Source: Candidatus Omnitrophota bacterium
GTDB lineage: Bacteria; Omnitrophota; Gorgyraeia; Duberdicusellales; 4484-171
DNA: 32,000 nt
Assembly (NCBI GenBank): GCA_021735045.1
Contig: JAIPHU010000004.1
Coordinates: 1-32,000, forward strand
Direction: 5' to 3'
Shown here: positions 938 to 26,057 of the stretch, in pieces
Numbering within the stretch: position 1 is the stretch's first letter
Layout: each line of letters starts with the position of its first letter
Position numbers and translations under genes: made by a program
The notes under the pieces: model-generated
The model's database searches: none
Told to the model about the DNA's origin: nothing
The model's input: the letters and a program-made list of their open reading frames with translations, nothing else

Positions 938-1010
938 GGGCCATTAGCTCAATCGGCAGAGCAGGGGCCTCTTAAGCCCAAGGTTGAAGGTTCGATTCCT
1001 TCATGGCCCA
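938..1010 (+). tRNA. tRNA-Lys (anticodon CTT)
   Basis: Manual cloverleaf: acceptor GGGCCAT/ATGGCCC, D stem GCTC/GAGC, anticodon stem GGGGC/GCCCA with loop CTCTTAA, T arm GAAGG-TTCGATT-CCTTC, discriminator A. 73 nt, no encoded CCA. Confidence 0.93.
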
Positions 1011-1109
1011 TGATATATTTTGTTTTAAAAATATGGTTGCAAATATAAAAACTTGGTTGAGATAAAAAAGTAATCGGAACAAATAGAATTATTTTTAGGA
1101 AGTAGTTAG

Positions 1110-1134
1110 CTTCGCCTGCGGCGAAGATTTGTTT
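1110..1134 (+). terminator. Candidate intrinsic terminator downstream of tRNA-Lys
   Basis: GC-rich 7-bp hairpin CTTCGCC-tgc-GGCGAAG (1110-1126) followed by ATTTGTTT. It is the only GC-rich element in an otherwise AT-rich spacer. Confidence 0.35.
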
Positions 1135-1153
1135 CGATTCCTTCATGGCCCAT
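1133..1153 (+). repeat. Exact 21-nt direct repeat of the tRNA-Lys 3' end (T-loop to discriminator +1)
   Basis: TTCGATTCCTTCATGGCCCAT at 991-1011 is identical to 1133-1153. Confidence 0.95.
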
Positions 1154-1172
1154 AATAAACAAAAACAATTAA

Positions 1173-2444
1173 ATGCTTGATATTAAGTTTGTACGCGAAA
1201 ATCCTCAAATTGTAAAAGAATCTCTCCGAAAAAGAAACTCTAATTTTGACTTGGATGATTTTCTAAAAATTGATCAAGCCAGAAGAAGCCTTTTGACTAA
1301 AATTGAAAGTCTGGCTGCAGAACAGAATAGAATAAGTAACAAGATTAAAGAGTTGATTAAAGACAAAAAAGACCCTCAAGAGACCATTAATAACAGTAAA
1401 AAACTAAAAGCAGAAATCGAATTGTTAAGAAATGAATTTAAAAATATTGATCAAGCCTGGATTGAAAAAAGTCTTCAAATTCCAAATATTCCAGATTCTT
1501 CTTTGCCCAAAGGGGATGCATCCGCAAACAAGGTTTTAAAAGAGGTAGGCAGAACTCCTAAATTTAAATTTGAACCTAAAGATCATCTTCAAATAGCTAA
1601 AAATTTGGACATAATTGATTTTAAACGCGCAACAAAGATTACCGGCTCTAATTTTGTTTGTTTTAAAGGGTTTGGTTCAAGGCTGGTGCGGGCATTAATC
1701 AATTTTATGTTGGATTTGCATACCGAAAGAAATGGTTATCAAGAAATTTGGCCACCAAAAATTGTCAATCAAGATTCAATGCAAACAACCGGCCAGTTAC
1801 CTAATTTAAAAGAAGATATGTACAGATTAGAAGATACTGATTTTTGGCTGATTCCTACCGCCGAAGTACCGGTTACTAATCTTTGTTCTAATGAGCTCTT
1901 AGAAGAAAAAGATTTACCTATTTCTTATGCAGCATATACACCTTGTTTCAGAAAGGAAGCCGGTTCTTATGGAAAAGATACTAAAGGCTTAATGAGAGTT
2001 CATGAGTTTGATAAGGTTGAACTAGTTAAAATTACAAAACCAAACCAATCATATAAAGCCTTAGATACAATAGTAGCTAATGCTTGCCAAGTCCTAGATT
2101 TACTTAAACTACCCTACCGTGTTTTGCTTTTATCAACTGAAGATATTAGTTTTGCATCAGCTAAATGCTATGATATTGAGCTTTTTGCGCCAGGTTTAGA
2201 TAAATGGCTTGAAGTTTCAAGTTGTTCTAATTTTGAAACCTTTCAAGCAAGACGAGGGAATATAAAGTATAAAGACTCTGAAACTAAGAAAAATCAATAT
2301 GTACATACTTTAAATGGTTCCGGAGTTGCTCTGGCTAGATTAATTGCGGCAATTTTAGAAAATTATCAACAAAAAGATGGTTCTGTGATCATCCCTAAAG
2401 TTTTGAGGTCTTATTTAAGTGGAAGAAAGAGAATTAAAAAATAA
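1173..2444 (+). CDS. serS: Seryl-tRNA synthetase
   Basis: 423 aa. N-terminal coiled-coil arm followed by a class II core (TAEVP, FRKEAGS, RVHEFDKVE, GSGVALAR). No Shine-Dalgarno sequence is visible upstream. Confidence 0.95.
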   Translation: MLDIKFVRENPQIVKESLRKRNSNFDLDDFLKIDQARRSLLTKIESLAAEQNRISNKIKELIKDKKDPQETINNSKKLKAEIELLRNEFKNIDQAWIEKSLQIPNIPDSSLPKGDASANKVLKEVGRTPKFKFEPKDHLQIAKNLDIIDFKRATKITGSNFVCFKGFGSRLVRALINFMLDLHTERNGYQEIWPPKIVNQDSMQTTGQLPNLKEDMYRLEDTDFWLIPTAEVPVTNLCSNELLEEKDLPISYAAYTPCFRKEAGSYGKDTKGLMRVHEFDKVELVKITKPNQSYKALDTIVANACQVLDLLKLPYRVLLLSTEDISFASAKCYDIELFAPGLDKWLEVSSCSNFETFQARRGNIKYKDSETKKNQYVHTLNGSGVALARLIAAILENYQQKDGSVIIPKVLRSYLSGRKRIKK

Positions 2445-3006
2445 TTATGTCTTTACATTAGTTAAGTTTTTTCTTTTTTTAATAATTTTTTGCTTTTTGG
2501 CAAAATTCATTCATTATTTTATAAAAGAAATTCACAGTGTAGCAGGTTTAGATTTTAATACATTTATAGGTGCAATAGTTGCTGTTTTTGCTTTTTATCT
2601 ATTCTTAACCGATTTAAATGGATTCTATAAAAAAATACAAAGATTTTTTTTTCGGTCAAAGTTTTTTTCCTGTTTATTTCCGTCAATTTTGATCATTCTT
2701 GCTTTAAGTTATTTTTTTATTCCGAAAATATTTAATATTTCCTTTGATAAAAATCTTTTTGTTTTTTTGGGGAGTTCTTCTTTGTTTATCCATTTAATTT
2801 ATGTGGCAAGAGCTACCAAAGGAAATTCATTTAATACTTTAGTTAACTATCTTTTTATCTTTAGTATACTCATCGTTTTGAATCTAATCTTTTTTGGCCT
2901 TTATCTAAAGATTAATTTTAATTTTGAGCTAGGCAAGGTTTTGCTTGACGGGGTACAGGCAGGTACAGCCTTAATTAGAGATGTTTTTGTTAAAGGGTTT
3001 AAATAG
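2419..3006 (+). CDS. Hypothetical polytopic membrane protein
   Basis: 195-aa ORF with about 5-6 hydrophobic segments and no recognisable motif. The start overlaps serS by 26 nt and is uncertain. Confidence 0.55.
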   Translation: MEERELKNNYVFTLVKFFLFLIIFCFLAKFIHYFIKEIHSVAGLDFNTFIGAIVAVFAFYLFLTDLNGFYKKIQRFFFRSKFFSCLFPSILIILALSYFFIPKIFNISFDKNLFVFLGSSSLFIHLIYVARATKGNSFNTLVNYLFIFSILIVLNLIFFGLYLKINFNFELGKVLLDGVQAGTALIRDVFVKGFK

Positions 3007-3070
3007 TATTGGAATTATTGATTAATCTTGTCCTTGTGTTATAATTTTTAAGCTATAGAAATATTAATAA

Positions 3071-3127
3071 GATCTCTCACCCGCTACGTGGGTTCGAGAT
3101 CCGAAAAATTATTTCATAATTTTTCGG
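3071..3127 (+). other. Two adjacent stem-loops directly upstream of tRNA-Ser, overlapping its 5' end
   Basis: H1 3071-3101: GATCTC/GAGATC outer stem plus ACCCGC/GTGGGT inner stem. H2 3101-3127: perfect 12-bp CCGAAAAATTAT-ttc-ATAATTTTTCGG, whose last two G residues are tRNA nt 1-2. Confidence 0.6.
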
Positions 3128-3214
3128 AGAGGTGGCAGAGTCCGGTTGAATGCGGCGGTCTTGAAAACCGTTGTGGGGTTAAACCCACCGGGGGTTCGAA
3201 TCCCTCCCTCTCCG
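3126..3214 (+). tRNA. tRNA-Ser (anticodon TGA), long variable arm
   Basis: Acceptor GGAGAGG/CCTCTCC, anticodon stem GCGGT/ACCGT with loop CTTGAAA, variable arm TGTGGGGTTAAACCCACC, T arm GGGGG-TTCGAAT-CCCTC, discriminator G. 89 nt, no CCA directly after it. Confidence 0.92.
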
Positions 3215-3286
3215 TTAAAAATTTTCTAATTTTTAACGGAGAAGTCTCACCGTCGAAACATTATTTCGACGGTGGACTCTCCGCCA
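3210..3286 (+). other. Structured tRNA-Ser trailer: two stem-loops, then a second copy of the acceptor 3' strand plus CCA
   Basis: H3 3210-3241: perfect 14-bp CTCCGTTAAAAATT-ttct-AATTTTTAACGGAG, which uses the last 5 nt of the tRNA. H4 3244-3277: 11-bp perfect core CACCGTCGAAA/TTTCGACGGTG, extended by 3 bp across a bulge. CTCTCCG at 3277-3283 repeats 3208-3214 and is followed by CCA at 3284-3286. Confidence 0.6.
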
Positions 3287-3329
3287 AAAATTAATTAATA
3301 AGTCAGAATTATTAAAAGAGAGGTTAAAA

Positions 3330-4748
3330 ATGAATAAATGTCACAAAAAAACAAAAGAAATTACCGAAATTATTTTAAAAGCAAAAAAGAAAGCAACTTC
3401 TGAGGTTGACACAAAAGCTGAATCAGAATTTGTAAAAAACATTAAATGGCCGGTAGATTGTGTTGTTGGGCCTGGCCTAGAAGGTGCGATTGCCTGTGAA
3501 AGCAAGGTAGGATATGTAAATGGTTCAAAGGGTTGGCTTGTTTATAGGGGGTACGATATCTTTGAACTTTGTGCTCATTCCAGCTTTGAAGAAGTATCTT
3601 ACCTTCTTCTTTACGGAAAATTACCTAGTGAAAATCAATTTAATAAATTTAAGGAAAAATTAATAGATTATCGGAATATCCCAAAAACTATCCGACTTTT
3701 ATCTAGTTTCCCGGTTCAAGAGATGAATGCGATGGGGGCGTTACGTTTGGGAACAAATTTGATGCGGCAAGAATGCACATTTGTTGACCGCGAAGAATAC
3801 AAACCAGGGGTAAAAACAACAATTAGTGCGGATGAAGATTCCATACCTATGGAAACTAGGCCTATGGGTGAAAGAAAAGCTATTTATTCTTTAAAAAGAG
3901 CCGAAGGCATTAAAAAACCCAGCGGTTTAAGTAAAGATCTGCATATGCCAGTAGGTTTTGAATCAGCCCTTCATCTTATCTCAGGAATTCCTACAATTGC
4001 GGGGGCTGTAGCCCGTTTAAGGGCTGGAGAGTTACCGCTTAATCCTGATCCAGAGCTTAGCCATGCTGCTAATTTAATTTATATGTTAACCGGCCGTAGG
4101 CCTAGTGCAATAGAGGAAAGAATCATGGATATAGCACTAATTCTTCATGCAGATCATGGAATGAATGCATCTACTTTTGCCACGATGGTTGTGGCATCTA
4201 CATTGTCTGACCTATATTTTGCAATTGGTTCTGGGGTTGCTGCCCTTAACGGGTCTTTGCACGGAGGGGCTAACGAGCGTGTAATAAATATGCTGGCGGA
4301 AATTGGAAGTTCAGATAATGTTAAAAAATGGTATAAGAAAAAAAGAGAAAAAAAAGAAAAAATTAGTGGTTTTGGCCATCGGGTTTATAAGGCATATGAT
4401 CCCCGAGCAAGAGTTTTAGGGCCTTTAGCTAATTTTTTAGTTAAATCGAAAAACGACTCAAAGATTAAGGATCTATTAAAAACTGCTAAAAACCTAGAAG
4501 GTGAGGTAGTCGCGAGCTTGGGTAAGGAAAAAAAGATCTTCCCTAACGTTGATTTTTATTCCGGCATTGTTTACTCTTGTCTAGATATACCAACTGAGCT
4601 TTTTACACCAATATTTGCGGTCAGTCGTGCTTCGGGTTGGACCGCAAGAGTTTTAGAATATCTTAAGAATAATCGCATTTTCCGACCCAGAGCTGTTTAT
4701 TCTGGGCCTTTAGATGAAAAATATACACCAATTAGTAAACGTAAATAA
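3330..4748 (+). CDS. gltA: Citrate synthase (long form, 472 aa)
   Basis: Motifs LILHADHGMNAST, SLHGGANE, GFGHRVYKAYDPRA and NVDFYSG (catalytic His/His/Asp context). RBS AGAGAGG lies upstream. Compared with the ~370-380-aa forms I remember, it has extra N-terminal and internal segments. Confidence 0.9.
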   Translation: MNKCHKKTKEITEIILKAKKKATSEVDTKAESEFVKNIKWPVDCVVGPGLEGAIACESKVGYVNGSKGWLVYRGYDIFELCAHSSFEEVSYLLLYGKLPSENQFNKFKEKLIDYRNIPKTIRLLSSFPVQEMNAMGALRLGTNLMRQECTFVDREEYKPGVKTTISADEDSIPMETRPMGERKAIYSLKRAEGIKKPSGLSKDLHMPVGFESALHLISGIPTIAGAVARLRAGELPLNPDPELSHAANLIYMLTGRRPSAIEERIMDIALILHADHGMNASTFATMVVASTLSDLYFAIGSGVAALNGSLHGGANERVINMLAEIGSSDNVKKWYKKKREKKEKISGFGHRVYKAYDPRARVLGPLANFLVKSKNDSKIKDLLKTAKNLEGEVVASLGKEKKIFPNVDFYSGIVYSCLDIPTELFTPIFAVSRASGWTARVLEYLKNNRIFRPRAVYSGPLDEKYTPISKRK

Positions 4749-4752
4749 TTTC

Positions 4753-4781
4753 TTGACTAACATTTAGGAAAAACTTATAAT
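4753..4781 (+). promoter_or_regulatory. Near-consensus sigma70 promoter (TTGACT-N17-TATAAT)
   Basis: -35 TTGACT at 4753-4758, 17-nt spacer, -10 TATAAT at 4776-4781. It sits about 65 nt upstream of the ATG at 4847. Confidence 0.6.
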
Positions 4782-4846
4782 TAAAAAAATCATCAAAATA
4801 AAGAGATAATATAGCCACGGTTAATATAGAGATACAGGGAGGCATA

Positions 4847-5032
4847 ATGGTTGAAAAAAGTTTTAAGGTTATTTCTAATTCAGAGACTCATCTTACTGCG
4901 GAACTAATTTCTGAGGCCCTTCTAAATTACTTTACTCTAGATCCAACAAAATCTGATGTAGTTTTTGGAGTAGTTGAAGAAAAAGCCGAAACTAAAAAAA
5001 GACAAGCTGAGAAGATAAGCCTAGAAATATAA
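4847..5032 (+). CDS. Small hypothetical protein (61 aa)
   Basis: Strong RBS AGGGAGG 5 nt upstream of the ATG, and a consensus promoter upstream. No recognisable domain. Confidence 0.55.
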   Translation: MVEKSFKVISNSETHLTAELISEALLNYFTLDPTKSDVVFGVVEEKAETKKRQAEKISLEI

Positions 5033-5063
5033 AAGGGGATATTGAGGCAGAAGGAAAAATGAA

Positions 5064-5492
5064 ATGAAACGAATAACTCTGATCTCTATTGTTTGCTTAC
5101 TGTTGTTTTCAATGGGTCTAGGAGCTCAAACAATTACCGACTCAGATTACTTAAAAAATACACTCAACTTAATTGCTGATAAAACTTTAAAGGCTTATAA
5201 TCATCAAGATTACATAGCTTTTTTTAACTATTACTCCAATTCATTAGCCCAGTTTAAAAATAAAAACTATTTTGATAATTTGTTTGTTGCAGTGTATAAA
5301 GATAATTTTGGTGATATTGTCTCTAAAAAAATTCTTTCCGAGAAGAGCTCCCTAGATCCAGATTACCCCAGACTCGTTTACAGAGCAATTTGCACAAAGT
5401 GTAAGAATGTTTTAATCACCGTAAATTTTCAAAAAGAGTCTAATACCTATCGCATTAAACGGATAACTTTTGACCGTATACCACAAATATAA
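5064..5492 (+). CDS. Hypothetical secreted protein (142 aa)
   Basis: N-terminal signal peptide MKRITLISIVCLLLFSMGLGA|Q, with no lipobox. GAAGGAAAAA lies upstream. No recognisable domain. Confidence 0.62.
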   Translation: MKRITLISIVCLLLFSMGLGAQTITDSDYLKNTLNLIADKTLKAYNHQDYIAFFNYYSNSLAQFKNKNYFDNLFVAVYKDNFGDIVSKKILSEKSSLDPDYPRLVYRAICTKCKNVLITVNFQKESNTYRIKRITFDRIPQI

Positions 5493-5515
5493 GTTTATTA
5501 GTAGTTTATTAGGTT

Positions 5516-5589
5516 GCGCCCGTAGATCAATTGGATAGATCGTTTGGCTACGGACCAGAAGGTTGCAGGTTCGACTCCTGCCGGGCGCA
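5516..5589 (+). tRNA. tRNA-Arg (anticodon ACG)
   Basis: Acceptor GCGCCCG/CGGGCGC, D stem GATC/GATC, anticodon stem TTTGG/CCAGA with loop CTACGGA, T arm GCAGG-TTCGACT-CCTGC, discriminator A. 74 nt, no CCA directly after it. Confidence 0.93.
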
Positions 5590-5591
5590 TT

Positions 5592-5684
5592 GTTCGACTC
5601 TTCCGACGCTTTGATTTTGAAAAAAATCAAAGGTCGGAATCCCGACCGAAACGAAGTGGAGCGTCGGGACTGCCGGGCGCACCA
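5592..5684 (+). repeat. Second copy of tRNA-Arg nt 53-73 split by a 69-nt structured insert, followed by encoded CCA
   Basis: GTTCGACTC at 5592-5600 repeats 5569-5577 (nt 53-61). CTGCCGGGCGCA at 5670-5681 repeats 5578-5589 (nt 62-73). CCA is at 5682-5684. The insert at 5601-5669 is closed by a 9-bp stem formed by its own first and last 9 nt. Confidence 0.9.
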
Positions 5685-5693
5685 ATAAAGTCG

Positions 5694-16646: not shown

Positions 16647-17063
16647 TTGAAAAGTTTAACTAAATATTTAACTTTTAACACCAAAAAAGAAGTAGAACTT
16701 ATTAACATTACCAATCAGATTGAATCTTTAGTTGCAGAAAGTAAGATTAAAGAAGGAATTTGTCTGGTTAATGCAATGCATATTACAGCTTCAGTTTTTA
16801 TAAATGATGAAGAAGAAGGCCTAAAACAAGATTTTAAAGATTGGCTCGAAAAGCTTGCTCCCAAAGATGTTTCTTTGTATCGACATAATTTAGGCGTAGA
16901 AGATAACGGGCACGCTCACCTAAAACGAACCATTATGGGCCGAGAGGTTGTAATCGCAATAACTCAGGGAAAACTTGATTTTGGTCCATGGGAACAAGTT
17001 TTTTATGGCGAATTTGATGGAAAACGCTCAAAAAGAGTAGCTGTTAAGTTAATTGGCGAATAA
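16647..17063 (+). CDS. YjbQ/UPF0047-family protein (secondary thiamine-phosphate synthase-like)
   Basis: TTG start with AAAGGAGG upstream. [22 protein letters not shown] and GPWEQVF..EFDG motifs. Confidence 0.85.
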
Positions 17064-17067
17064 TCAG

Positions 17068-17097
17068 TTGGAAATAGGTTTTAATTTATGTTATATT
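17068..17097 (+). promoter_or_regulatory. Candidate promoter with extended -10 (TTGGAA ... TGtTATATT)
   Basis: TTGGAA at 17068-17073, TG at 17089-17090, TATATT at 17092-17097. It sits about 60 nt upstream of the prepilin-like gene. Confidence 0.45.
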
Positions 17098-17158
17098 ATA
17101 ATGGTGGAGAAAATATTAAATGTATGGTTAAAATTGATCAATAACAGGAAGGTGTAAG

Positions 17159-18157
17159 ATGAAAAGCAGAAAAAATTTTACTTTGATTGAACTGTTGATT
17201 GTAGTTATTATTTTAGGTACTGTAGCTACTTTTGCAATTCCTGCTTATCGAAATGTGGTAGAAAACTCCAAAGCTAAAGTATGTCGGACAAATTTAAAAC
17301 TTTTGATCGGGGGAGTAAAATCATATGCTCTTGAAAACGATAAACTGCCTGGATCTTTGGGCCAGCTTAGAGATAGACACCTAGATAGAGCTTGGGCTCA
17401 AATTTTAGAAAAAGAAGATAGATGGAAGATAGATTTAGCTTATTTAATTGTTAATATCGACAAAGGAAAATTAGCTTTTGCACAAGGAAGCTGGGATGAT
17501 ATGATCTCTTTAACTTGTCCTGCCGATGATACACCGCCGCCACAAGGCCATTCCTATGGAATAAACAAAAATATTGCTAATATGAGCCTTGAAGATTTTA
17601 AAAAGTTACCAGAGGATACCATAATAGTTGCTGATAGTAATAATCCAACTTTTACAAAAGTTTTACACAGACATAAACATTATAATCTAACCGGCGCCAG
17701 TAAATACGGACAATCAGCTACAAAAGATAAACAGCTTAGAGTTCATGGGTTAAGCAGCTCTGTCAAAGTTCCTGGAGTAAGCAGAAAACCTAGTAAAATG
17801 AATCCTTCTGGAATAGAACAAAGAAATGGACGCCCTGTTTACTCACCTGGTCTTGGTAATAGCCCTGTTTCACCTGCAGCTTCTAACTCTCCTATAGATA
17901 GAACTATCGGAAATTTTGGTTCAGGGGAGTTAAGTGATGAAAATCCTGACCAGGGTGGATATGGTAGTGATGTAACCAGTTCTGCTGGTTTTAATCAACT
18001 TAATAGACCGGTTGAGTCAACAGCTCCTGCTGAAAGTAGCTCCGGAGGTCATTCGCGTCCTCAACCAAGCCAAACTGCAGAAGATGATCAAGAAGCAGAA
18101 GAGGAAGATGATGACGACGATTGTCCTTGGTATGACCCATTTTGTTGGTTTAGTTAA
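17159..18157 (+). CDS. Prepilin-type N-terminal domain protein (PulG / type IV pilin-like) with a long disordered acidic C-terminal extension
   Basis: N-terminus MKSRKN-FTLIELLIVVIILGTVATFAIPAY (class III signal-like, Glu at +5). RBS AGGAAGG. The C-terminal ~140 aa are rich in S, P, G, D and E and end in DDDDCPWYDPFCWFS. Confidence 0.85.
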   Translation: MKSRKNFTLIELLIVVIILGTVATFAIPAYRNVVENSKAKVCRTNLKLLIGGVKSYALENDKLPGSLGQLRDRHLDRAWAQILEKEDRWKIDLAYLIVNIDKGKLAFAQGSWDDMISLTCPADDTPPPQGHSYGINKNIANMSLEDFKKLPEDTIIVADSNNPTFTKVLHRHKHYNLTGASKYGQSATKDKQLRVHGLSSSVKVPGVSRKPSKMNPSGIEQRNGRPVYSPGLGNSPVSPAASNSPIDRTIGNFGSGELSDENPDQGGYGSDVTSSAGFNQLNRPVESTAPAESSSGGHSRPQPSQTAEDDQEAEEEDDDDDCPWYDPFCWFS

Positions 18158-24080: not shown

Positions 24081-26057
24081 ATGCATAAGTTTAAACTAAA
24101 GAGTAAGTTTAAGCCTACCGGAGACCAACCTGAGGCAATTAAGGCACTTACCCGGCGAATAAAAAGTAATAAACCCTATTCGACTCTTTTAGGTGTTACC
24201 GGATCCGGCAAAACTTTTACCTTGGCATCCGCAATTGAAAAGATTAACCGGCCGATACTTTTGATTTCTCATAATAAAACACTCGCTAGCCAGCTTTATG
24301 CAGAACTTAAAAGCTTCTTTCCGCAAAATGCGGTTGAATATTTTGTTAGCTACTACGACTACTATCAACCGGAAAGCTATATTCCTCAAACTGATACCTA
24401 TATTGAAAAAGATGCGTCCATCAACGATCGGTTGGATAGATTAAGGCTTTCGGCAACCAGCTCTCTGCTTACCCGAAAGGATGTTATTGTAGTAGCGTCA
24501 GTTTCTTGCATCTATAATCTTGGTTCTCCAGAAGAATATCGTGATTTTGCTTTTTATATAAAGGCCGGTAACTATATTTCCCAAAATGATCTTTCTCATA
24601 AGTTAGTAGAACTGCAGTATCAAAGAAATGACTATGATTTTTCACGAGGCAGTTTTCGAATAAAAGGAGATGTTGTAGATATCTATCCTGCTTATAGTCA
24701 AAAAGCAAACCGAATCGAGTTTTTTGGCGAGACAATAGAAAAAATTTATCAGTTTGACCCGGCAAGCGGGAAAAAAATAACTGAACTAGATCAGGTGGCT
24801 ATCTATCCGGCTAAGCATTTTTTAATTGGAAAAGATAGAGTAAAAGCTGGAATAAAAACAATTAGAAAAGAACTAGAGCAAAGAATTGAATCTCTTACAA
24901 AAAAAAACAAGCTGCTGGAAGCACAGCGGCTGCGCCAGAGAACTCTATTTGATTTAGAGATGTTGGCTGAATGCGGCTGGTGTCACGGAATTGAAAACTA
25001 TTCCCGTCATCTAAGCGGAAGGCCGGCTGGTTCAAGGCCGTATTGCTTGATAGACTATTTCCCTAAAGATTTTATAACGATTATTGATGAAAGCCATGTA
25101 ACTATTCCCCAAATAAAGGGGATGTATCTCGGCGATAAATCCCGCAAGGAAACTCTTGTTCAGCATGGCTTTCGCCTCCCGTCTTGCTTAGATAATCGTC
25201 CGCTGCGTTATCCGGAGTTTAAGGATATTAGCCAGCAAACTGTTTTTGTCTCGGCTACACCTACTAACTATGAAGTTAAACTTTCGGAAGGAAAGGTAAT
25301 TGAACAAATTATTCGACCGACCGGCCTGCCTGACCCTAAAATTAAAGTAAGGCCAACTAAAAATCAAATCGATGATCTAACCGCAAGAATAAAAGAAAAG
25401 ACTGCTTTAGGAGAGCGGACTTTAATCACGACCTTAACTAAACGAATGGCTGAGGAGTTAACCGAATACCTAAAAGATGAATCTTTATCAGTTGCCTATA
25501 TCCACTCAGAAATAGATACCCTAGAGCGAACTAAGATCTTGCGCCAGCTAAGGCTAAAAGAGTTTGATAGTTTAGTAGGGGTCAATCTATTGCGGGAAGG
25601 GCTAGATCTACCGGAAGTATCTTCGGTGGTTATTCTTGATGCAGACAAAGAAGGGTTTTTGCGTTCAGCTACTTCTTTAATCCAGGTAGCCGGAAGGTGT
25701 GCCCGAAATATAAACGGTGAAGTTATAATGTATGCTGATACGATCACAAAGTCTATGCAGAAAGCAATCCAAGAAAGCAGCCGCCGCCGTAAGATCCAGA
25801 TTGAATATAATAAGAAGAACAATATCACGCCCCGCTCAATTGAATCAGCAGTAAAAGAAGGTATAGAAGTTTACCTCAAAGAAGAAGAAAAACTTTATCA
25901 GCAGCTGGGCCTAGACAACAAAGAGGTTGATCTGCATCAAGCCGTAGCTCAATTGGAGAAAGAGATGTATATTGCGGCAAAAAATCTCCATTTTGAAAAA
26001 GCAGCTCAACTACGCGATAAGATCAAAAACTTAAAAAAAGCTATTAGAAAAGCTTAA
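24081..26057 (+). CDS. uvrB: Excinuclease ABC subunit B
   Basis: GVTGSGKT Walker A, YYDYYQPE beta-hairpin region, DESH, and helicase motifs. The C-terminal UVR domain reads FEKAAQLRD. Confidence 0.96.
   Translation: MHKFKLKSKFKPTGDQPEAIKALTRRIKSNKPYSTLLGVTGSGKTFTLASAIEKINRPILLISHNKTLASQLYAELKSFFPQNAVEYFVSYYDYYQPESYIPQTDTYIEKDASINDRLDRLRLSATSSLLTRKDVIVVASVSCIYNLGSPEEYRDFAFYIKAGNYISQNDLSHKLVELQYQRNDYDFSRGSFRIKGDVVDIYPAYSQKANRIEFFGETIEKIYQFDPASGKKITELDQVAIYPAKHFLIGKDRVKAGIKTIRKELEQRIESLTKKNKLLEAQRLRQRTLFDLEMLAECGWCHGIENYSRHLSGRPAGSRPYCLIDYFPKDFITIIDESHVTIPQIKGMYLGDKSRKETLVQHGFRLPSCLDNRPLRYPEFKDISQQTVFVSATPTNYEVKLSEGKVIEQIIRPTGLPDPKIKVRPTKNQIDDLTARIKEKTALGERTLITTLTKRMAEELTEYLKDESLSVAYIHSEIDTLERTKILRQLRLKEFDSLVGVNLLREGLDLPEVSSVVILDADKEGFLRSATSLIQVAGRCARNINGEVIMYADTITKSMQKAIQESSRRRKIQIEYNKKNNITPRSIESAVKEGIEVYLKEEEKLYQQLGLDNKEVDLHQAVAQLEKEMYIAAKNLHFEKAAQLRDKIKNLKKAIRKA

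Follow-up and report, generated by a model that had tools for sequence, protein, structure and literature searches.

Integration into tRNA genes follows the principle of a regenerated target and a displaced fragment (PMC4383910), and the islands found in tRNA genes span 9-121 kb (PMC9897764). Cis-mobilizable elements (CIMEs) are decayed ICEs or IMEs that retain attL and attR (PMC5704250). In the window, the whole 32-kb stretch of DNA analyzed here, a similar arrangement of intact tRNA genes and repeated 3' ends is seen on a far smaller scale. We consider it probable, at roughly two chances in three, that the three repeats described below are small, non-autonomous, non-coding insertions that target tRNA genes, a miniature variant of tRNA-gene integration.

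Repeated 3' ends of three tRNA genes

ARAGORN and Rfam identify intact genes for tRNA-Lys(CTT) (938-1010), tRNA-Ser(TGA) (3126-3214) and tRNA-Arg(ACG) (5516-5589); these and all features below lie on the + strand. CCA is encoded in 0/3, and the bases directly after the genes are TGA, TTA and TTG, respectively. Each gene is followed by another copy of its own 3' end. For tRNA-Lys, 1133-1153 is identical to 991-1011 (21 nt), and the extended repeat covers 25 nt at 96% identity (991-1015 and 1133-1157). For tRNA-Arg, CTGCCGGGCGCA (5578-5589) recurs at 5670-5681, followed by CCA, and a second repeat, GTTCGACTC (5569-5577), recurs at 5592-5600. For tRNA-Ser, CTCTCCG (3208-3214) recurs at 3277-3283, followed by CCA, and the full repeat extends over 23 nt at 78% identity (3208-3230 and 3277-3299), with a CC versus TT difference.

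The repeats were assessed by randomizing the 250 nt downstream of each tRNA. A shared word of the observed length appeared in 0/5000 shuffles for both Lys and Arg. Taken by itself, the Ser 7-mer does not reach significance (458/5000 shuffles), and in a post-hoc test the terminal 7-mer plus CCA was found in 2/200000. Although weak by its 7-mer alone, the Ser repeat is confirmed at the sequence level by comparison with relatives. The preliminary description's report of duplicated 3' ends at all three tRNAs is thus upheld, for Lys and Arg beyond shuffled sequence and for Ser via relatives. Its statement that the Lys and Arg copies start at the T-loop stands for Lys (T54) and in part for Arg, where the distal copy is split into nt 53-61, a 69-nt insert and nt 62-73; the Ser repeat begins within the acceptor stem. 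The spacers are predicted to fold stably: Ser (3216-3290) at -34.2 kcal/mol with z = -8.8, Arg (5590-5690) with z = -3.9 and Lys (1011-1156) with z = -2.4.

Empty sites in related genomes

Insertion is expected to leave empty sites in genomes that were not targeted, as had been predicted. The comparison set consisted of related Omnitrophota genomes with 71-80% nucleotide identity and identical or near-identical tRNAs. The tRNA-Lys is identical in L167-L177, with TAAT directly after it, and the Lys insertion is absent in L167, L168 and L170-L177. In L161, L167 and L170-L176, tRNA-Ser differs at two D-loop positions only and ends in CTCTCCG followed by CCA; the Ser insertion is absent from all of these and from the more distant L001, whose tRNA-Ser has further D-loop differences. 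An identical tRNA-Arg occurs in L161, L304, L162, L166, L167 and L170, and the Arg insertion is absent in L161, L304, L162, L163, L166 and L170-L174. In L161 (GCA_021735105.1) and L304, the tRNA-Arg end CTGCCGGGCGCA runs straight into CCAATAAAGTCC, with CTGCCGGGCGCACCAATAAAGTCCATAGTCC right after the tRNA body. The predicted empty sites were therefore found, with tRNA-Ser and tRNA-Arg of L161/L304 running into CCA plus the window's distal flank and tRNA-Lys of L167-L177 running into TAAT. Given these sites, the window carries insertions of 142 (Lys), 69 (Ser) and 92 (Arg) nt.

At all three window sites, the flank past the distal copy matches the empty sites, whereas the flank past the proximal copy does not. 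On alignment, the inserts are shown to be insertions or deletions relative to the sister genomes. The same alignments show that the native end is the distal copy, now displaced; the proximal end, which lacks CCA, arrived with the insert. Since the clade natively encodes CCA for tRNA-Ser and tRNA-Arg but not for tRNA-Lys, a distal CCA is seen in two of the three copies. The attL/attR-like geometry proposed earlier, with an element-borne CCA-less 3' end and a displaced CCA-bearing native end, fits these observations. The pattern is not systematic: in sister genomes whose tRNAs are identical, none or one of the three sites has it, and the tRNA-Ile and tRNA-Ala genes of relatives lack it. Distal copies have degenerated in L164 and in L305, the latter with 3-4 changes over 21 nt.

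Structure of the inserts and the TLE family

At the Lys site, the proximal repeat copy is the last 20 nt of the tRNA (991-1010). The unique part (1011-1132), which is missing in relatives and scores 94.5 bits against covariance model R1, folds into an AU-rich left arm (1011-1071), the 5' strand of helix P1 (AATCGGAACAAAT, 1072-1084), a weak hairpin (1087-1107) and the P3 hairpin CTTCGCC-TGC-GGCGAAG (1110-1126), and terminates in the right end ATTTGT (1127-1132). The P1 3' strand is made up of this right end and the first bases of the distal copy (1133-1139). The distal copy itself (1133-1157), the displaced native 3' end, comprises tRNA-Lys nt 54-73 and the native flank TAATA, of which TAAT is found at the relatives' empty sites. 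P3 plus ATTTGTTTCG has a terminator-like score, and this hairpin sits between tRNA-Lys and its distal copy.

The unique part at the Ser site (3215-3276), missing in relatives and containing inverted repeats I8 and I13, consists of an AU hairpin (TTAAAAATT-ttct-AATTTTTAA, 3215-3236) followed by the 5' segment of a long GC hairpin; this hairpin begins with CGGAGAAGT, which nearly copies the 5' end of the tRNA. The distal copy (3277-3299), identified as the displaced native end, contains CTCTCCG, CCA and the native flank AAAAATTAATTAAT, homologous to the L161 flank CCAAAATTTAAACAAAAGAGAGG; it pairs with CGGAGA at 3237-3242, closing a 20-bp mini-helix that ends in CCA. At the Arg site, the unique part (5590-5669), likewise missing in relatives, comprises TT, the T-loop copy GTTCGACTC and a 69-nt three-helix module (5601-5669) with a closing helix (TTCCGACGC/GCGTCGGGA), an AU hairpin (5610-5631) and a GC hairpin (5632-5647). 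The distal copy of CTGCCGGGCGCA (nt 62-73) plus CCA (5670-5684), the displaced native end by comparison with L161 and L304, is directly followed by the native flank ATAAAGTCGATAGTC. The distal ends at both sites form acceptor-like mini-helices ending in N73-CCA.

The Lys insert belongs to a family, here named TLE. Three other lineages carry a member at tRNA-Arg, and the closest relative carries one at tRNA-Ser. The window Lys element and the Arg elements of L167/L168 and L164, with total lengths of 136-145 nt, have in common the motif GGAACAAAT...ATTTGTT together with a copy of the T-loop. A covariance model trained on these three detects two elements outside the training set, L165-Ser (48.7 bits) and L305-Arg (67.3 bits), and in 721 kb of Omnitrophota DNA it gave no matches beyond these two and the training members. 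Copies at three different tRNAs can be aligned end to end and have the right junction AAGATTTGT/T54 in common. They consist of an AU-rich arm of about 66 nt, the long-range helix P1, in which the 5' strand complements the right end and the first distal T-loop-copy bases, and the GC hairpin P3 followed by ATTTGTTT, with a complementary A-tract upstream; P3 plus ATTTGTTT looks like an intrinsic terminator. In the predicted helices, 95.7% of cells are paired and 7/19 pairs have changed on both sides, a pairing level reached by 0/500 shuffles and compared with 31-48% in slid controls, in an alignment that was itself fitted to the model. The tRNA-specific end of P1 tracks the host T-loop: TTCGATT with AATCGGAA at Lys, TTCGAC with GTCGGAA at Arg and CGAAT with ATTCGGA at Ser. 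L167 and L170, 95.7% identical over 11 kb, differ by the presence in one and absence in the other of a 145-nt element at tRNA-Arg, which could equally be due to precise deletion across the 23-nt repeat.

These alignments and predicted folds show that TLE is a structured family confined to the 3' flanks of tRNAs. The preliminary description's suggestion of a family of miniature elements, non-coding and directed at tRNA genes, is thus supported for the Lys insert by its homologues at tRNA-Arg and tRNA-Ser of relatives. The Ser and Arg elements resemble TLE in their general layout (a T after the tRNA, an AU hairpin and a GC-rich helix that pairs with the distal repeat). Because no homologue of either was found in any of the loci compared, we infer their mobility from one insertion each.

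Origin of the insertions and comparison with known systems

In the mechanism we propose, a small, strongly structured non-coding element would insert at the DNA level within the 3' portion of a tRNA gene, carrying its own version of the tRNA sequence that runs from the point of insertion through the discriminator base; this version lacks CCA and has T next. The tRNA gene would stay intact because the element supplies a replacement 3' segment, and the native 3' end (the genomic CCA, where native, and the downstream flank) would be shifted 69-142 nt downstream as a dead relic. The logic would be that of tRNA-gene integration, target regenerated and fragment displaced, at a mini scale, with a unique sequence of 62-122 nt that contains no gene. 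Such elements would be non-autonomous, moved or excised in trans by a putative site-specific recombinase encoded elsewhere; no recombinase, transposase or reverse transcriptase was found in the window or beside any TLE. Persistence may be helped by the terminator-like module and by the downstream gene keeping its native upstream sequence. That the insertions are missing in sister genomes points to mobile-type DNA elements and no new tRNA-processing system.

Several observations count against this explanation, the negative recombinase result among them. A double-stranded circle of only ~140 bp makes a poor substrate for recombination, the repeats vary in length (7/23, 12 and 21-25 nt), and the acceptor-stem start of the Ser repeat is no classical integrase sublocation. 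In addition, the compensatory changes in conserved helices point to possible selection on nucleic-acid structure, such as a terminator or single-stranded DNA, which is not predicted for a purely selfish double-stranded att element.

The three sites are unlikely to be relics of ordinary integrase-bearing islands or prophages, each deleted down to a short attL-attR stretch. The clade's integrative elements do use such tRNAs: in L175 and L176, the gene for a large serine recombinase (490 aa), flanked by 31-bp inverted repeats, abuts and overlaps the tRNA-Ser 3' end, a recombinase at the same target that also favors our explanation, and viral contigs carry 3' fragments of tRNA-Lys and tRNA-Arg. 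CIMEs offer a precedent for decayed elements (PMC5704250), and the genomes are small and probably deletion-prone. However, trimming to about 100 nt would be needed at three sites within 5 kb, no pseudogene debris was seen, and independent deletions would not give the same length and architecture in TLEs that align throughout at three tRNAs.

We also doubt that there is no dedicated mobile element and that the repeats arose by homology-facilitated illegitimate recombination, in which the conserved tRNA anchors foreign DNA, or by replication template switching or slippage at quasi-palindromes. Homologous TLEs lie beside three different tRNAs and share one right junction, and a one-sided tRNA anchor would be insufficient unless TLE itself were a dispersed element. 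In an A-B-A arrangement of this kind, also doubtful, B would be a foreign tRNA-downstream spacer with its terminator, consistent with the terminator-like hairpins within the spacers. The proximal flanks are similar to the native ones yet different, as homologous DNA of a related genome would be (Lys, TGATA versus TAATA; Ser, TTAAAAATTTTCTAAT versus CCAAAAATTAATTAAT; L167 Arg, TATTGTTC versus TATGTTC), the Arg site has a simple 23-nt tandem-like duplication, and the Ser and Arg inserts are single-copy.

An RNA-level module (pre-tRNA processing, an alternative 3' exon or T-loop intervening sequence, a CCA mini-helix decoy or a tRNA-like signal for processing of the downstream mRNA), parts of which had been considered earlier, is very improbable despite the strong spacer structures, the helix conservation that includes compensatory changes and, on the transcribed strand, G-U pairs, the N73-CCA mini-helices, the location of all three in the next gene's 5' UTR region and the RtcB-archease genes adjoining tRNA clusters in other Omnitrophota, because the elements are dispensable (sister genomes without them have the same tRNAs, Lys and Arg identical and Ser with two D-loop differences), distal copies are decayed in L164 and L305, where the insertion looks older, a terminator-like hairpin separates tRNA-Lys from its distal copy, an Rfam search gave no ribozyme or intron match, and splicing is needless with the proximal tRNA intact.

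Split and multi-intron tRNA genes occur in archaea (Nanoarchaeum, Thermoproteales). Only the nested split tRNA-Arg genes of other Omnitrophota, which lie beside archease-RtcB and have 5' and 3' parts broken in the anticodon loop with complementary flanks, are like these; the window tRNAs are intact, and no bulge-helix-bulge motif could be drawn by hand at the junctions. With its A-tract upstream, P3 followed by ATTTGTTT resembles the intrinsic (Rho-independent) terminators behind tRNA genes, but a terminator does not account for the duplication of the tRNA end, the presence-absence variation among genomes or the tRNA-specific P1 extension.

Among mobile DNA, MITEs, REP/BIME and the PATE of IS200/IS605 are similarly small, non-coding, hairpin-rich, multi-copy and presumably trans-mobilized. 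Unlike them, the window-type elements lack terminal inverted repeats and a fixed-length target duplication, and the known copies are all at tRNA 3' ends, each with a tRNA-restoring segment. Like CIMEs, they are non-autonomous, lie between att-like repeats at the 3' end of a tRNA and lack recombination genes; however, CIMEs are decayed, kb-scale and traceable to a parent ICE or IME, whereas the window elements are ~10-100 times smaller and so far parentless, and one mini-architecture, TLE, recurs at different tRNAs. As in tRNA-gene islands and prophages (the Islander principle, PMC4383910), an intact regenerated tRNA is accompanied by a displaced 3' fragment in the same orientation, the window Lys fragment begins at the T-loop, the repeat extends to the tRNA 3' end or slightly beyond it, relatives have empty sites, and the element-borne end, without CCA, is unlike the native one. 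In contrast to these kb-sized, integrase-encoding islands, the unique sequence of the window elements measures 62-122 nt, contains no gene and has a conserved hairpin architecture in which an internal strand is complementary to the junction.

Repeated tRNA 3' ends in the window

The window comes from a genome of low GC content (about 35%) and carries, all on the + strand, the end of the 23S rRNA gene, 5S, a DUF4870-like ORF, tRNA-Lys(CTT), SerRS, ORF195, tRNA-Ser(TGA), citrate synthase, two small ORFs, tRNA-Arg(ACG) and flavodoxin, followed by housekeeping genes. No recombinase, transposase or reverse transcriptase gene is encoded in the 32 kb. All three tRNA genes are complete when scored against RF00005: tRNA-Lys(CTT) at 938-1010 (70.3 bits), tRNA-Ser(TGA) at 3126-3214 (57.4 bits) and tRNA-Arg(ACG) at 5516-5589 (64.9 bits).

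A preliminary description had reported a second copy of the 3' end downstream of each gene, and all of the repeats that it listed are present. At tRNA-Lys, the proximal copy (the 3' end of the intact gene) and the distal copy (its repeat farther downstream) are identical over 21 nt (991-1011 and 1133-1153) and 96% identical over 25 nt, and the repeat reaches 4-5 nt beyond the tRNA end. The tRNA-Arg repeat comprises 12 nt (nt 62-73; 5578-5589 and 5670-5681), with CCA after the distal copy. A T-loop 9-mer is repeated separately 2 nt past this tRNA (5592-5600), so that the distal layout reads nt 53-61, a 69-nt three-helix module, nt 62-73 and CCA. At tRNA-Ser, the repeat starts at nt 67, within the acceptor stem, and is exact over 7 nt (3208-3214 and 3277-3283), with 78% identity over 23 nt and distal CC where the proximal copy has TT. 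When the 250 nt downstream were shuffled, the Lys and Arg repeats were each matched in 0/5000 shuffles; the Ser 7-mer alone is unremarkable (458/5000), whereas the 7-mer followed by CCA was obtained in 2/200000. All three spacers fold far more strongly than shuffled sequence.

Two other features of the window were recorded. The 5' leader of tRNA-Ser (3071-3128) contains two strong hairpins (z = -5.0), the first with a T-arm-like stretch (CGTGGGTTCGAGATCC) similar to tRNA-Ser nt ~47-62 and the second (TCCGAAAAATTAT/ATAATTTTTCGGA) including the first bases of the tRNA; a promoter-like box (TGTGCTATAAT) upstream of tRNA-Ser is common to relatives, although the leaders themselves are quite different. 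Within the uvrB coding sequence, 25942-25957 is a 16-nt exact match to the tRNA-Arg D-arm region (CCGTAGCTCAATTGGA), most likely by chance given the number of queries.

Empty and filled sites in related genomes

Fully syntenic contigs were reached through homologues of citrate synthase, SerRS and flavodoxin (80-92% identity) and represent at least nine related lineages, with 71-80% nucleotide identity to the window. SerRS-anchored scans of genome and metagenome collections returned only relatives at <=64% identity, and the closer ones came from protein searches and contig look-ups. The relatives' tRNA-Lys and tRNA-Arg are identical to those of the window and their tRNA-Ser differs in the D-loop only, apart from the tRNA-Ser(TGA) of L166 (L-numbers denote loci fetched from other genomes), which is a different sequence.

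The tRNA-Lys site, with a 142-nt insertion in the window, is empty in L167 and L168 (TAAT...) and in L170-L174, and its 3' side is empty in L175-L177; L161-L166, L304 and L305 do not cover it. At tRNA-Ser, where the window has a 69-nt insertion, L161 (GCA_021735105.1) is empty, with CTCTCCG-CCA followed by AAATTTAAAC...AGAGAGG-ATG, and L167, L168 and L170-L174 are likewise empty with CCA. The contig of the closest relative, L165 (citrate synthase 92%), begins inside an insert at this site, which is of the type found at the window tRNA-Lys (TLE, described below). In L175-L177 the tRNA-Ser end, with CCA in L175 and L176, is followed by a serine-recombinase element, and the different tRNA-Ser(TGA) of L166 has a terminal CCA and an unrelated long spacer; L162-L164 have no tRNA-Ser at this position, and L304 and L305 do not reach it. 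The tRNA-Arg site, with a 92-nt insertion in the window, is empty in L161 (GCGCA-CCA-ATAAAGTCC), in L304 (with CCA), in L162 and L163 (TTT replacing CCA), in L166 (without CCA) and in L170-L174. It is filled by a 145-nt TLE in L167 and L168 and by a TLE with a decayed distal copy in L164 and L305; the L165 contig stops within the tRNA, and L175-L177 do not cover the site.

At all three window sites, the flank after the distal copy is the empty-site flank, whereas the flank after the proximal copy does not match. Because only the distal flanks match the empty sites, the distal copies are the native 3' ends and the proximal ends came with the insertions. This comparison, the decisive evidence, shows insertion at the DNA level that regenerates the tRNA target and displaces its native end. 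The preliminary description had offered an attL/attR-like reading, which largely holds for the geometry and for the displacement of the native, CCA-bearing end, and the empty sites that it anticipated do occur (L161, L304, L167-L177), with the flank of the displaced fragment. Contrary to what had been considered, the pattern is not systematic, since relatives mix empty and filled sites. L167 has the 145-nt element at tRNA-Arg and L170 lacks it, despite 95.7% identity across 11 kb, and gain or precise loss must therefore have been recent.

In this clade an encoded CCA is native to tRNA-Ser and tRNA-Arg and not to tRNA-Lys, which exactly accounts for which of the distal copies bear CCA. The bases after the tRNA-Arg discriminator vary between CCA (L161, L304), TTT (L162, L163) and TAT/ATA, with otherwise alignable flanks (L161 2742-2745, L162 11353-11356, L166 4925, L170 14428). 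Phylum-wide, the encoded CCA has a mosaic distribution, even inside a single isoacceptor.

The element at tRNA-Ser in L175 (11838-13540; the same in L176) occupies the same tRNA end as the window's 69-nt insert. It is ~1.6 kb long and consists of a large serine recombinase gene (490 aa, minus strand) between 31-bp inverted repeats (CCGCCATTTTTGAGAGCGGGCAATTTTGGCA and its complement), one of which begins within the tRNA-Ser 3' end; the last ~12 codons of the gene are the reverse complement of that end. This element and TLE have no sequence in common. A recombinase with the right target is present in the clade. L175 and L162 have the same sequence at their contig ends, suggesting that the flanks of tRNA-Ser and tRNA-Arg are linked by a rearrangement or a repeat in this population.

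A structured element family and its possible origins

The Lys insert belongs to a family, here termed TLE, in which (AATCG/GTCG)GAACAAAT ... hairpin ... AAGATTTGT precedes a T-loop copy. TLE copies lie downstream of tRNA-Lys in the window and of tRNA-Arg in L167/L168, L164 and L305, and the L165 copy downstream of tRNA-Ser is a variant. They are 136-145 nt long and alignable end to end, their repeats begin at T54-C56 (T54 in the Lys copy), and every known copy sits immediately 3' of a tRNA. A covariance model built from three copies recovers the two untrained ones (48.7 and 67.3 bits) and finds none further in 721 kb of Omnitrophota sequence. Over the five copies, 95.7% of cells in the long-range helix P1 and the GC hairpin P3 are paired, with both-side changes in 7/19 pairs, in an alignment that was itself fitted to the model; 0/500 shuffles match this pairing and slid controls reach 31-48%. 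Changes have built up in the distal tRNA copies of L305 and L164, where the TLE helices are kept. The distal copy is a relic, and the structured module is the conserved part. An element-supplied origin for the variant proximal T-loop of L164 (GAGTC) was rejected, as it rests on one base and is not backed by L305, where both copies read GAGTC.

At its outer end, P1 is specific to the tRNA: the 5' strand complements the host T-loop (Lys TTCGATT, Arg TTCGAC, Ser CGAAT), with an invariant G always opposite position 55. An analogy of this G with the G18-psi55 tertiary pair was rejected on strand polarity. The junction-complementary strand suggests three options. It could serve folded single-strand recognition, by analogy with integron attC or IS200/IS605 ends; it could have arisen by templated correction of a quasi-palindrome; or it could reflect selection for a bidirectional terminator. 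P3 of the Lys TLE (1110-1126) with the adjoining ATTTGTTTCG forms a GC-rich hairpin followed by a T-run on the transcribed strand, an arrangement conserved in all copies, and P3 followed by ATTTGTTT scores as a predicted intrinsic terminator.

No homologue of the Ser or Arg insert was found when the three spacers were compared with all fetched loci by blastn-short, and each is single-copy there. They share a common build: a T right after the discriminator, an AU-only 9-bp hairpin and a GC-rich helix in which the distal repeat forms the 3' strand or adjoins it. Because of this last feature, the displaced native end would fold into an acceptor-like mini-helix ending in N73-CCA. Terminator-like sites occur in both inserts on the minus strand only. 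The TTGTT before the Arg T-loop copy is similar to the TLE right end, and the Arg site may be a rearranged TLE site. A right-end motif shared by Ser and Arg, CGAAAC...CGNCGG(T)GGA, failed as a strict pattern.

The favoured mechanism is a defined mini-element moved in trans by an agent that we infer. The window inserts could alternatively be independent deletion remnants of large islands, with the bounding repeats left behind; that TLE keeps a consistent size and architecture at three different tRNAs speaks against this and favours the trans-moved element. RNA-level roles, with the downstream segment acting as an alternative 3' exon, decoy or processing signal, would make the pattern functional in tRNA maturation, as the preliminary description had entertained. 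They are disfavoured: the element is dispensable, distal copies decay, and a terminator-like hairpin stands between the tRNA and the distal copy. A tRNA intron, whether group I or of the archaeal bulge-helix-bulge type, was rejected, since the proximal tRNAs are complete and Rfam searches of the window region and L007, at gathering thresholds and at E<=10, returned tRNAs and noise only, with no ribozyme, intron or known sRNA.

tRNA fragments across the phylum and likeness to known systems

Collinear self-fragments flank tRNAs far more often than controls in 48 more distant Omnitrophota loci. Among 106 tRNAs, a 5' fragment lies upstream in 15 and a 3' fragment downstream in 6, with 0-1 for each of the six other strand and side combinations; the Islander survey found the opposite ratio (159 upstream 5' fragments vs 3760 downstream 3' fragments). 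By BLAST, tRNA fragments number 45 per 576 kb in Omnitrophota and 10 per 1354 kb in other phyla. The upstream copies reproduce the 5'-terminal 11-16 nt of tRNA-Lys or tRNA-Arg, 6-60 nt from the intact gene (L005 6731-6748, L007 7321-7335, L018 7900-7915, L025 ~7840, L084 ~9100, L175 9855-9886), followed by a variable hairpin and a complement (e.g. GCCATTAGC...GCTAATGGC) that together form a mini-helix.

In five loci, a tRNA-Arg(TCG) is split in the anticodon loop, and its outer 5' and 3' halves lie on either side of another tRNA-Arg that is intact and different (L007 5987-6502, L091 7731-7985, L018 3865-4081, L024 1866-2325, L021 4050-4386 and 15310-15683). The nesting in L007 has two levels, A containing B and B containing C. 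The junctions are conserved and mutually complementary (left AGTCCCTCG..hairpin..TCCCGAG, right CTCGGGA..hairpin..CGAGGGGC). When joined, the outer halves give a perfect cloverleaf in L007-B, L091 and L018 and a degenerate one in L007-A and L021, which is consistent with tRNA-carrying cassettes having been inserted one after another and then decaying. No bulge-helix-bulge could be drawn by hand at these junctions, and an intron-closing helix abuts both. These loci lie in a conserved cluster (radical-SAM gene, tRNA-Arg, tRNA-Lys, archease, RtcB, bPH-domain gene, SerRS, tRNA-Ser), with no integrase between its tRNAs. The operon for archease and RtcB, a tRNA-splicing ligase (L007 7491-9360), lies directly 3' of the fragment-bearing tRNA-Arg(TCG)/tRNA-Lys(CTT) pair and upstream of SerRS; this synteny recurs in L005, L012, L018 and L091, whereas neither the window nor its close relatives have the operon at this position.

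Another tRNA-Arg(TCG), in L002 (17590-17712), was missed by ARAGORN. It has an otherwise good cloverleaf, a 43-nt hairpin-containing insert after nt 12 (GCGCCCGTAGCT|tcccgtcagtagacggga...|GCTCAACAATTGG) and no intact copy nearby, and is either a pseudogene or a gene needing removal of an intervening sequence. Downstream of tRNA-Arg(ACG) in the same locus (17014-17180), a unit of 70 nt, made up of the final 10 nt of the tRNA and 60 nt of trailer, is doubled around a unique 45-nt hairpin segment, A-B-A as in the window, with a repeat extending far beyond the tRNA. Outside Omnitrophota (Thermodesulfobacteriota, Elusimicrobia, others), L063 (2352-2387), L073 (11694-11730), L115 (2342-2377) and L141 (1991-2033) each contain the 5' half of a tRNA-Ser(TGA), 36-39 nt long and stopping in the anticodon loop. 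On contigs that include an intact tRNA-Ser beside SerRS, the half precedes it by roughly 100 to 1700 nt; in L115 no tRNA was called. Split or duplicated halves therefore occur in more than one phylum.

The window inserts might belong to an undescribed phylum-wide Omnitrophota system of small, structured nucleic acids that find tRNA genes through base-pairing, with the junction-complementary strand as guide (ssDNA or RNA). Its extreme form would be tRNA-carrying cassettes in the anticodon loop of the resident tRNA-Arg, giving Russian-doll split genes beside the conserved archease-RtcB operon, and in the boldest version the halves would be joined as RNA; we consider this whole reading improbable. 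RNA-level joining of the nested halves, if true, would represent the first split tRNA genes in Bacteria. The wider pattern (upstream 5' fragments, nested split tRNA-Arg, adjacent RtcB-archease) offers a starting point for studying how tRNA genes turn over, or tRNAs are repaired, in this uncultivated phylum.

If trans-mobilised, the window inserts would be the smallest known tRNA-gene-targeting integrative elements and would define minimal cis requirements for targeting. They show a route for loss of encoded CCA by insertion, not point mutation, and can place terminators and new 5' UTRs before housekeeping genes in streamlined genomes. In metagenome-assembled genomes they also cause spurious tRNA-fragment hits and break assemblies at repeats, and they will be missed by island-finding tools that demand an integrase and a minimum length. 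We found no account in the literature of such mini-elements or of Omnitrophota tRNA introns. No parent ICE, IME or prophage was found; the 3' ends of tRNA-Lys and tRNA-Arg that viral contigs contain stand in ordinary att-like phage settings with unrelated GC content, and a gapped TLE-motif scan gave 120 chance matches, none followed by a T-loop.

Among known systems, MITEs have terminal inverted repeats and a fixed-length target duplication; the window inserts have neither, their ends not being inverted repeats of one another and their repeats measuring 7(23), 12 and 21-25 nt. The predicted intrinsic terminator of the Lys TLE P3 has the usual GC hairpin and T-run on the transcribed strand. In geometry the inserts resemble tDNA-integrating islands, which are recognised by a regenerated target and a displaced native end (PMC4383910): an intact tRNA with a same-orientation fragment of itself on the 3' side, and empty sites with matching flank, are both also present here. 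Island fragments start at the anticodon loop or the T-stem/loop, and here at T54 (Lys), at nt 62 with a separate T-loop copy (Arg) and at nt 67 (Ser). Typical islands span 9-121 kb (PMC9897764) and carry an integrase inside the element, whereas the window inserts measure 69-142 nt and lack an integrase gene. They share with CIMEs, decayed elements retaining attL/attR, att-like bounding repeats without integration genes, and are apparently a miniature, structured, non-autonomous variant of tRNA-gene integration.
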